Assembly (NCBI RefSeq): GCF_013122565.1
Contig: NZ_CP053258.1
Strand: one strand, 5' to 3'
Length of the DNA stretch: 64,000 nucleotides
From: Escherichia coli
Lineage (GTDB): Bacteria; Pseudomonadota; Gammaproteobacteria; Enterobacterales; Enterobacteriaceae
Position numbers and translations under genes: made by a program. The notes under the pieces are model-generated. The model was given only the letters and a program-made list of their open reading frames with translations. It was not told the origin of the DNA and ran no database searches. Positions 16,339-27,628 of the stretch are shown here, piece after piece. Position 1 is the first letter of the stretch. The number at the start of each line of letters is the position of its first letter.

Positions 16339-16797
16339 TCTGTAAATATTATTTAGCCGTAGTAATCACTCGCCGTAATTATTACGGCTAAATAAACATC
16401 AGCATCGCTTATTAATATTTGTTCTTTTGTGCGGCTTAGCATTTGGAAATTATTGACGCCAATTATAAATTCTATTTTTCTTACACGATTCAGCTAATGA
16501 ATCTTTATTTTCTCACCACCCAGTTGTCACTTTAATGATAATTATTTGTTAAATAATTGTTTTATTTTATATTGGTTATACCAATTGCCCGCCAAAACGC
16601 CTTCTGCACTACCCTTTCGTTATAACGCCCTTTTGCAACAGCTTCTTAAAATCAACTTGATATGTTTTGCAACATATGTGACCTGATAGCCAAATCCAAG
16701 TAACAGGAATTTAATCATGTTTACAGTAATGTAACCTTCCCGTAAAATGCCCACACACTTTAAACGCCACCAGATCCCGTGGAATTGAGGTCGTTAA
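16339..16797 (+). promoter_or_regulatory. AT-rich cyoABCDE promoter/regulatory region, including ampG terminator hairpin near 16349-16393
   Basis: 460-bp AT-rich intergenic region upstream of cyoA; near-perfect inverted repeat ttagccgtagtaat/attattacggctaa just after the ampG stop. Confidence 0.5.
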
Positions 16798-24012: not shown

Positions 24013-25377
24013 ATGAACGATTATAAAATGACACCAGGTGAGCGGCGCGCGACCTGGGGTTTAGGAACCGTTTTCTCGTTGCGCATGCTGGGCATGTTTA
24101 TGGTTCTGCCGGTTCTGACCACGTACGGCATGGCTCTGCAAGGTGCCAGCGAAGCATTAATCGGTATTGCCATTGGTATTTATGGTCTGACTCAGGCCGT
24201 TTTTCAGATTCCGTTTGGCCTGCTTTCCGACCGCATTGGTCGCAAACCATTAATTGTCGGTGGGCTGGCGGTGTTTGCCGCCGGTAGCGTTATCGCTGCG
24301 CTTTCTGACTCCATCTGGGGAATTATTCTGGGCCGGGCGCTACAAGGCTCCGGTGCGATTGCCGCTGCCGTTATGGCGCTGCTTTCCGATCTCACGCGCG
24401 AACAAAACCGCACCAAAGCGATGGCGTTTATCGGCGTGAGCTTTGGCATTACCTTCGCCATTGCGATGGTGCTTGGCCCAATCATCACTCACAAACTTGG
24501 GCTGCACGCGCTGTTCTGGATGATCGCTATTCTGGCAACGACCGGCATTGCATTGACCATTTGGGTTGTGCCCAACAGTAGCACTCACGTACTTAATCGT
24601 GAGTCCGGAATGGTGAAAGGCAGTTTCAGTAAAGTACTGGCGGAACCGCGGCTGCTGAAACTCAACTTTGGCATTATGTGTCTGCACATGCTTCTGATGT
24701 CTACGTTTGTTGCCCTGCCCGGACAGCTGGCTGATGCGGGGTTCCCGGCGGCTGAACACTGGAAGGTCTACCTGGCAACGATGCTAATCGCCTTTGGCTC
24801 GGTCGTGCCTTTCATAATCTACGCTGAAGTTAAGCGCAAAATGAAGCAAGTCTTTGTCTTCTGCGTCGGGTTGATCGTGGTTGCGGAAATTGTGTTGTGG
24901 AACGCACAAACGCAGTTCTGGCAACTGGTAGTCGGCGTGCAGCTTTTCTTTGTGGCGTTTAATTTGATGGAAGCCCTTCTGCCCTCACTTATCAGTAAAG
25001 AGTCGCCAGCAGGTTACAAAGGTACGGCGATGGGTGTTTACTCCACCAGCCAGTTTCTTGGCGTGGCGATTGGCGGTTCGCTGGGCGGCTGGATTGACGG
25101 CATGTTTGACGGTCAGGGTGTATTTCTCGCTGGCGCAATGCTGGCCGCAGTGTGGCTGGCAGTCGCCAGTACCATGAAAGAACCGCCGTATGTCAGCAGC
25201 TTACGCATTGAAATCCCTGCGGACATTGCCGCAAACGAAGCGTTAAAAGTACGTTTGCTGGAAACTGAAGGCGTCAAAGAAGTGTTGATTGCAGAAGAAG
25301 AACATTCAGCTTATGTGAAAATCGACAGCAAAGTGACGAATCGCTTTGAGGTTGAACAGGCAATTCGTCAGGCATAA
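24013..25377 (+). CDS. yajR: MFS transporter YajR
   Basis: 454-aa product from MNDYKMTPGERRATWGLGTVFSL; AAGAGG RBS; ORF track start at 24007 is an upstream GTG. Confidence 0.92.
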   Translation: MNDYKMTPGERRATWGLGTVFSLRMLGMFMVLPVLTTYGMALQGASEALIGIAIGIYGLTQAVFQIPFGLLSDRIGRKPLIVGGLAVFAAGSVIAALSDSIWGIILGRALQGSGAIAAAVMALLSDLTREQNRTKAMAFIGVSFGITFAIAMVLGPIITHKLGLHALFWMIAILATTGIALTIWVVPNSSTHVLNRESGMVKGSFSKVLAEPRLLKLNFGIMCLHMLLMSTFVALPGQLADAGFPAAEHWKVYLATMLIAFGSVVPFIIYAEVKRKMKQVFVFCVGLIVVAEIVLWNAQTQFWQLVVGVQLFFVAFNLMEALLPSLISKESPAGYKGTAMGVYSTSQFLGVAIGGSLGGWIDGMFDGQGVFLAGAMLAAVWLAVASTMKEPPYVSSLRIEIPADIAANEALKVRLLETEGVKEVLIAEEEHSAYVKIDSKVTNRFEVEQAIRQA

Positions 25378-25392
25378 AAAACGCGGCGAATT

Positions 25393-25486
25393 GCCTGCTG
25401 CGCTACGCTTACCAGGCCTACAAAGTTCTTGAGTTACAAACCGTTGTAGGCCGAATTAGCTGTTCATGCTGCATTCGGCATGAACA
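25393..25486. repeat. REP-like elements and hairpin between yajR and yajQ
   Basis: gcctgctgcgctacgcttaccaggcctac resembles REP consensus; 9-bp stem tgttcatgc/gcatgaaca at 25461-25486. Confidence 0.5.
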
Positions 25487-25504
25487 AAACGCACATAGTC
25501 GCGA

Positions 25505-25996
25505 TTAATCGCGGAAGTTTTTGAACTGGAACGGCTGGCCGAGATCGCCACCACGTACCATCGCCATGACAGCCTGCAAATCATCACGAGATTTGCCCGT
25601 TACGCGGATTTCATCGCCCTGAATTTGCGCCTGCACTTTCAGTTTGCTGTCTTTGATCATCTTGACGATTTTTTTCTGGGTCGCGCTCTCAATGCCCTGT
25701 TTCAGTTTCGCTTCCACAAACCAGGTTTTACCGCTATGAACGATATTCTCCGGTACATCCAGTGAACTGCCTTCAATGCCGCGCTTCAGCAGCTTGGCAC
25801 GCAAAATATCCAGCAACTGATTGACCTGGAAATCGGACTCGCTCAACACTTTGATGGTTTTGCTGGCGTCGTTCAGCTCAAATGAGGCTTCAACATTACG
25901 GAAGTCAAAACGGGACTCCACTTCGCGGCTCGCGTTATCGACCGCGTTACGTGCTTCCTGAAGATCAACTTCAGAGACAATATCGAAAGATGGCAT
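25505..25996 (-). CDS. yajQ: UPF0234 nucleotide-binding protein YajQ
   Basis: 163-aa product from [24 protein letters not shown] track start is 56 codons upstream. Confidence 0.92.
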
Positions 25997-26073
25997 CTTT
26001 TCCTCTCCCTTCATTTTTGATGCGAAGCATAATACCCGCAAAGTTAAATAACCGACAGTCCCGCACCAGGACG

Positions 26074-26121
26074 TATCCCTTAATTGTGCATAGTCACAAC
26101 AGCATGCACAATTAAGGGATA
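26074..26121. promoter_or_regulatory. Perfect 18-bp inverted repeat with 12-bp spacer in the divergent yajQ/panE promoter region
   Basis: TATCCCTTAATTGTGCAT (26074-26091) and ATGCACAATTAAGGGATA (26104-26121), read directly. Confidence 0.5.
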
Positions 26122-26163
26122 GCCTTATTGAACACCCGGAGTGGTTGCGGGTGAGGAGGAACA

Positions 26164-27628
<1,465 letters not shown>

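Follow-up and report, generated by a model that had tools for sequence, protein, structure and literature searches.

Between the divergently transcribed genes yajQ and panE of Escherichia coli lies a long, perfect inverted repeat, and the question that it raises is whether the repeat acts as DNA or as RNA, and to what effect. The window, i.e. the whole stretch of DNA that was analysed, comprises 64 000 nucleotides of an E. coli contig (NZ_CP053258.1). An earlier note, made from the letters of the window, had described an 18-bp perfect inverted repeat with an N12 spacer between divergent yajQ and panE, had judged it unusually long and perfect for an intergenic site in core DNA, and had offered a dimeric operator, a cruciform or an RNA hairpin as its meaning, with no assigned function known to its author. 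The description itself was confirmed. The two arms, TATCCCTTAATTGTGCAT and ATGCACAATTAAGGGATA, are each 18 nt long and 100% complementary, and they enclose a 12-nt loop, AGTCACAACAGC. The repeat lies 77 nt from the yajQ ATG and 42 nt from the panE ATG; both genes are annotated accordingly in RefSeq for matching E. coli genomes. The positions of the features are collected in Table 1.

Table 1. Features of the yajQ–panE intergenic region and its flanks, in window coordinates.
Feature	Position	Strand	Remarks
yajQ CDS	25505–25996	−	163 aa plus stop; ATG 25996–25994; mRNA stabilized by cleavage
Putative panE −10 hexamer, CATAAT	26028–26033	+	Inside GCATAATACC; assigned by homology to the Klebsiella start
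Small hairpin, GUCCUG-GUG-CGGGAC in yajQ-sense RNA (DNA GTCCCGCACCAGGAC)	26058–26072	−	Abuts the large repeat
Extended stem, as folded	26067–26125		3–4 additional pairs (AGG/CCU and C-G, bulged); 23–24 bp on either strand
Left arm, TATCCCTTAATTGTGCAT	26074–26091		5′ arm in panE-sense RNA, 3′ arm in yajQ-sense RNA
Loop, AGTCACAACAGC	26092–26103		Position 26096 is A in the window, G in MG1655, ATCC 11775, Nissle and O157
Right arm, ATGCACAATTAAGGGATA	26104–26121		Includes 26106, the published RNase III site (NC_000913.3 444573)
panE CDS	26164–27075	+	303 aa plus stop; ATG at 26164; first ~100 nt antisense to the yajQ leader
yajQ transcription start	26263	−	99 nt inside the panE CDS; published start and promoter-string match
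Likely −10 hexamer of the distal yajQ promoter, TACAAT	26270–26275	−	Assigned from its position relative to the start

The length of the repeat was compared with chance expectation. Among the perfect inverted repeats of the 64-kb window the 18-nt arms rank first, the runners-up having arms of 13 and 11 nt. In 30 first-order Markov simulations of the window the longest arm was 9–13 nt, so that the judgement of unusual length in the earlier note was borne out against a simulated maximum of 13 nt. When up to three mismatches were allowed, the arm sequence was found in the window at these two places only (0.05 expected). A chance origin of the inverted repeat is excluded. The second-longest perfect inverted repeat of the window is found at 16349–16395, with 13-nt arms (TTATTTAGCCGTA) and a 21-nt loop. 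In E. coli MG1655 (NC_000913.3) the repeat occupies 444558–444605, with arms at 444558–444575 and 444588–444605, and is the same as that of the window except for one loop base; coordinates were converted by equating NC_000913.3 444515 with window position 26164, in descending order. The complete 167-bp spacer between the two genes was not matched at 100% identity by any complete E. coli genome, the best being 99.4% identical.

A role for this site has been reported for K-12. Gordon, Cameron and Pfleger (mBio, 2017; PMC5371410) compared MG1655 with an rnc deletion mutant by RNA-seq coverage and listed an RNase III site at 444573, labelled 'Intergenic (panE-yajQ)'. This coordinate falls within the MG1655 arm 444558–444575 and corresponds to window position 26106. 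Purified RNase III was used on an in vitro transcript of the 444573 region, for which cleavage was scored 'Y' (PMC5371410). For the panE–yajQ site, the cuts are mapped by 5′ RACE, and the legend to Fig. 4 describes staggered cuts that leave 2-nt 3′ overhangs (PMC5371410). The half-life of the yajQ mRNA was ~6 min in the wild type versus ~3 min in the rnc mutant (PMC5371410), an effect that comes from one study and is modest, about twofold. Cleavage in the yajQ 5′ UTR was described by the authors as transcript-stabilizing, and a stabilizing structure at the 5′ end generated by the cut was proposed (PMC5371410). Stability was affected for yajQ alone, with no panE effect seen; the authors remarked that a complementary hairpin could form in the panE transcript too, and their primer table contains panE-sense and yajQ-sense templates, both of which extend across the repeat (PMC5371410). 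A 2022 paper places yajQ among the mRNAs that are positively regulated by RNase III, through a mechanism that was left unresolved. The absence of an assigned function, as stated in the earlier note, is therefore corrected by the 2017 assignment of RNase III site 444573 to the yajQ leader. The inverted repeat is an already known and explained feature and not a new regulator site; its role has experimental support, and there is no reason to follow it up as an orphan operator.

Published 5′ ends, which the earlier note had named as a check, were examined and place the repeat inside the yajQ leader. The sole yajQ start in the table of Kim et al. (2012) is NC_000913.2 443640, with 29 reads and a 267-nt 5′ UTR (PMC3415461, supplementary file 2). 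The 51-nt promoter string of this start is the exact reverse complement of window 26263–26313. Counted from this start, the hairpin spans about +143 to +190; on the yajQ side the helix is thus contained in a real transcript, as defined by the published start and the 267-nt leader. The same table holds no E. coli panE start (PMC3415461), and the SMRT-Cappable-seq and Adams 2021 supplements make no mention of yajQ or panE. A start is given for panE (apbA) of Klebsiella pneumoniae, with 56 reads and a promoter string that ends in GCGTTGCATAATACCTGCA (PMC3415461). This string aligns to window 25990–26040. The block GCATAATACC (26028–26036, plus strand) is kept in every aligned Enterobacteriaceae intergenic region and matches the mapped K. 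pneumoniae panE −10 element. From this homology the E. coli panE start is probably near 26040, and the hairpin would then occupy about +35 to +82 of the panE leader. A panE start at ~26040 together with the yajQ start at 26263 would give leaders that overlap by ~224 nt. The upstream half of the K. pneumoniae panE promoter overlaps the start codon and the ribosome-binding site of yajQ, which lie on the opposite strand. At the other end of panE, the CDS overlaps the start of the downstream gene yajL by ~38 nt (27038–27075), as it does in annotated E. coli genomes; the arrangement suggests translational coupling of panE and yajL.

Folding of the repeat was calculated for both transcripts. The plus-strand RNA folds with −30.0 kcal/mol (z = −6.9) and the minus-strand RNA with −30.7 kcal/mol (z = −4.2); none of 200 shuffled sequences was as stable in either case. 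The extended stem (Table 1) amounts to about two turns of dsRNA and reaches the helix length of ~20 bp or more of an RNase III substrate. Among the options in the earlier note, the RNA hairpin is the one upheld, by the position of the repeat in the yajQ 5′ UTR and by the published RNase III site in its arm. We consider it very probable that the repeat serves as template for an RNA hairpin in the divergent mRNA leaders and that this hairpin is an RNase III substrate.

Because the arms are perfect, the E. coli sequence cannot tell which strand is functional. Seven related sequences from the Citrobacter freundii complex, which carry an orthologous stem of 23 pairs, were used for the strand comparison. 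A G·U pair on one strand becomes a C·A mismatch on the opposite strand. The panE-sense RNAs of the seven sequences fold with −24.9 to −32.5 kcal/mol, compared with −6.9 to −21.7 kcal/mol for the yajQ-sense RNAs. Over the 23-pair stem, 95.0% of the cells form a standard pair in the panE sense and 73.3% in the yajQ sense. Ten of the 23 pairs vary among the Citrobacter sequences. In the panE sense eight pairs vary by interchange of G·U and Watson–Crick pairs only, and there are 2–7 G·U pairs per fold; in the yajQ sense nine pairs depart by unpaired cells only. Since G·U turns into C·A on the other strand, this one-sided pattern is the signature of a structure in panE-sense RNA. No pair has changed on both sides within Citrobacter, and two shuffle controls for the strand asymmetry were not significant, the variation being one-sided. 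The inner stem has changed on both sides when Citrobacter is compared with Escherichia (G-C to A-U). From these alignments we infer that the structure is conserved on the panE-sense RNA, at least in Citrobacter. The one-sided pattern suggests that the palindromic RNase III site may control panE as well.

The distribution of the hairpin was surveyed using one genome per species with YajQ, and 80 loci were returned. Throughout Enterobacterales the genes panE and yajQ are divergent, and the spacer between them measures 75 to 240 bp. Beyond E. coli, the long perfect repeat was found in this species scan in E. albertii only, in a form identical to that of E. coli. Sampling of PanE clusters for E. 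fergusonii or another intermediate Escherichia lineage yielded E. coli, Shigella, E. albertii or short-form Citrobacter-like contigs only. Members of the C. freundii complex (C. werkmanii, C. youngae, C. braakii and Citrobacter sp. FP75) have a 174-bp spacer with an orthologous, imperfect hairpin, which directly follows a TATACT/TATAAT hexamer. Most aligned genera have a spacer of ~125 bp and lack the segment, among them Enterobacter, Leclercia, Lelliottia, Pseudescherichia and Superficieibacter. Salmonella, which was expected to carry the hairpin, has a 125-bp spacer without it, and the segment is likewise missing from C. amalonaticus and C. farmeri-like genomes (113 bp) and from Citrobacter sp. 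RHB25-C09 (125 bp). In these short spacers a TATACT or TATAAT hexamer region is found at the position of the hairpin. The conservation across Enterobacteriaceae that the earlier note had proposed to check therefore holds for Escherichia and the C. freundii complex and fails for Salmonella, Enterobacter and others. Its label of 'core DNA' is not appropriate in the wide sense, as most Enterobacteriaceae with the divergent gene pair do not have the segment; by this sequence comparison the hairpin is a lineage-restricted gain of Escherichia and the C. freundii complex.

Within E. coli the locus was found once per genome in 5424 of 5426 complete genomes. An apparent second place in each genome is the palindrome aligning with itself on the other strand, which was reproduced (50 bits). 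Of these 5424 genomes, 5384 carry the 48-bp repeat in exactly the MG1655 form, an invariance that says little because the whole spacer is 95–99% identical in nearly all genomes. An IS3-family element interrupts the region in two cases. In E. coli 13TMH22 the element (IS1203) is inserted in an arm, at about 100–125 of its locus, and truncates the hairpin; in E. coli LT883142 it lies between yajQ and the repeat (196–1500 of its locus). Because the insertion splits the hairpin in a natural isolate, 13TMH22, the hairpin is dispensable and not essential. The only matches labelled as plasmids are megabase-sized E. coli records that contain this same locus and are mislabelled chromosomes.

With these data in hand, the readings of the palindrome as DNA can be weighed. 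An operator for a dimeric or tetrameric factor such as NtrC, acting on the divergent panE and yajQ promoters, is favoured by the position of the perfect palindrome, between genes that diverge; a weak NtrC peak (41% intensity) in gSELEX in vitro is also located at NC_000913.2 443846, within ~20 bp of the repeat (443782–443829), a TGCACCA-like half-site is present just outside the MG1655 repeat, and TGCACAA/TTGTGCA occur in the arms. The NtrC box was tested as the 17-bp literature consensus (T)GCA(CC)AnnnT(GG)TGC(A), with eight core positions. Its core, GCAnnAnnnTnnTGC, had no match with up to two mismatches in 25950–26300, and the box was rejected despite the gSELEX peak in the spacer, only half-site-like heptamers being present. 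A generic palindromic operator is not supported. The centres of its half-sites would be 30 bp apart, an unusual distance for a dimer, and they are not conserved in related genera: both the gene pair and the flanking promoter blocks are retained without the segment in Salmonella, Enterobacter, C. amalonaticus and others. The sigma-70 promoter consensus had no match in 25700–26500; an operator at the repeat would have no overlapping promoter-like site to occlude. In Citrobacter the arms diverge asymmetrically by transitions, such that RNA pairing is kept and DNA symmetry is lost; the one-sided pairing and the both-sided change of the inner stem argue against a DNA operator. The dimeric operator put forward in the earlier note is accordingly not supported, in view of the absence of the segment from species that keep the gene pair, the Citrobacter asymmetry and the lack of an NtrC box, and an operator for a dimeric or tetrameric factor is considered very improbable. 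The chance is slighter still, close to negligible, that the repeat works as a cruciform or another DNA structure acting on supercoiling-sensitive divergent transcription. The single-stranded DNA of the region does fold (−18.1 kcal/mol, z = −7.0) and lies between divergent promoters. Arms of 18 bp around a 12-nt spacer form cruciforms poorly, the C·A mismatches on one DNA strand in Citrobacter make the structure imperfect, and the direct evidence at the RNA level already accounts for the site; the cruciform suggested in the earlier note was not supported.

Two further readings accept the RNA and its cleavage. Sense–antisense RNA duplexes are RNase III targets, and the yajQ start at 26263 (minus strand) with the putative panE start at ~26040 (plus strand) would create ~224 nt of perfect sense–antisense overlap, so that the substrate in vivo might mainly be an intermolecular yajQ/panE duplex, with the hairpin incidental. 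This is considered improbable: cleavage was obtained on separately transcribed single-strand templates (Gordon et al.; PMC5371410), the in vivo signal is inside the hairpin arm and is not spread over the overlap, and the Citrobacter pattern is that of a conserved intramolecular stem. It is also unlikely, if less markedly so, that the hairpin is a lineage-specific and essentially neutral palindromic insertion, perhaps perfected by template switching between the arms, that RNase III cuts without selected function. Such neutrality would agree with the confinement of the hairpin to Escherichia and the C. freundii complex, the IS3-family interruption in one natural isolate, the small effect on yajQ half-life with none on panE, and an invariance of the repeat in E. 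coli that does not exceed that of the spacer around it. It is hard to reconcile, in the absence of selection, with 10 of 23 Citrobacter pairs that vary while 95% of the cells remain paired on one strand. The element, moreover, either predates the split between Escherichia and the C. freundii complex or has been kept after a transfer between the two.

Other identities were considered and rejected. The earlier note had named identity with a known REP-type repeat as grounds for refutation, and these do not apply. A REP/BIME assignment was discarded, as the repeat is single-copy, has no other copy in the window and does not match the REP consensus; REP40a is a different sequence, downstream of yajQ. 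A REP-like palindrome, GCCTGCTGCGCTACGCTTACCAGGCCTAC, is present at 25391–25422 in the spacer between the convergent 3′ ends of yajR and yajQ and is presumably the REP40a that one paper ties to yajQ. An intrinsic terminator was rejected, with no scan match in 25700–26500; its stem is rich in AT, and the sequence after the stem reads GCCUUAUUG on one strand and CGUCCUGG on the opposite one. A MITE-like mobile element was rejected since the repeat is single-copy and has no phage match. A search of Rfam 15 with 25300–26900 returned one chance snoRNA match (E = 9.7), outside the repeat.

Two smaller hairpins flank the repeat. The one at 26058–26072 lies ~11–16 nt downstream of the expected RNase III cut in the yajQ-sense RNA. 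At 26062 the window has C versus T in MG1655, and pairing is kept in the yajQ sense only, as G·U. In Escherichia this small palindrome, GTCC(T/C)GCACCAGGAC, stands in place of the TATACT/TATAAT hexamer of the genera that lack the large hairpin. Its location hints weakly that it may be the 5′ stabilizing structure proposed by Gordon et al.; folding of the processed yajQ leader is at the level of shuffled sequences (z = −0.01). The other small hairpin, at 26133–26153 on the plus strand (CACCCG, 9-nt loop, CGGGTG), is directly upstream of the panE Shine–Dalgarno sequence. It is kept across many Enterobacteriaceae with covarying stems, the variants being CACCTG/CAGGTG, CACCTG/CGGGTG (U·G), CACCCG/CGGGTG, CATCTG/CGGATG and CATTCGC/GCGAATG; where U·G occurs, pairing is confined to the panE sense.

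The RNA hairpin in the divergent leaders, as the preferred explanation, suggests the following course of events. A hairpin of 18 perfect pairs (~23–24 bp when extended) would form in the overlapping 5′ leaders of yajQ and panE. Transcription of yajQ begins inside panE, as others have shown for E. coli K-12, and gives a 267-nt leader that holds the hairpin. RNase III, a double-strand-specific endonuclease, then processes one hairpin arm, and the yajQ mRNA is about twice as stable with the enzyme as without it; both steps have been shown by others in K-12. The cut may act by removing the long upstream part of the leader, which is antisense to panE, to leave a shorter and more slowly decaying yajQ mRNA. 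The same hairpin is predicted to form in the panE leader, given the Klebsiella panE start, the conserved −10 element and the G·U pattern in Citrobacter. The present analysis extends the published account by the taxonomic range, by the one-sided pattern of G·U conservation that Citrobacter shows, and by using published starts to place the hairpin in both leaders. A more speculative history, which we hold to be possible though rather doubtful, is that the hairpin originated as an RNA element of the panE leader, in an ancestor common to Escherichia and the C. freundii complex, and later became perfect in Escherichia, so that one RNase III site would serve both mRNAs, with selection acting on the panE side. 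If this were true, the expression of panE (coenzyme A pathway) would be coupled to that of yajQ (nucleotide-binding protein). The locus is a clear case of a recently gained, lineage-restricted RNA processing site between genes whose arrangement is otherwise conserved.

The site of the window and the panE–yajQ RNase III site of E. coli K-12 (PMC5371410) are the same locus, and nothing differs in kind; the loop base at 26096 is A in place of G. It resembles other RNase III processing hairpins, such as the T7 early mRNA sites and adhE, in having a long, near-perfect stem of about two turns in a UTR that is cut with stabilization of the mRNA. Unlike the T7 early and adhE hairpins, the yajQ–panE stem is a perfect DNA palindrome common to two divergent, overlapping transcripts, and for this reason the same RNase III site can form in both mRNAs. 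With REP/BIME elements it shares a palindromic, extragenic nature and an RNA stem-loop that affects mRNA stability, whereas REP elements are multi-copy, GC-rich, conform to a consensus and are usually found at 3′ ends, and the yajQ–panE repeat is single-copy and is situated between 5′ ends. As in head-to-head antisense pairs that are cut by RNase III, the yajQ leader starts inside panE, with a leader overlap put at ~224 nt; it differs from such pairs in that the mapped cut is in an intramolecular hairpin and that single transcripts are cleaved in vitro.
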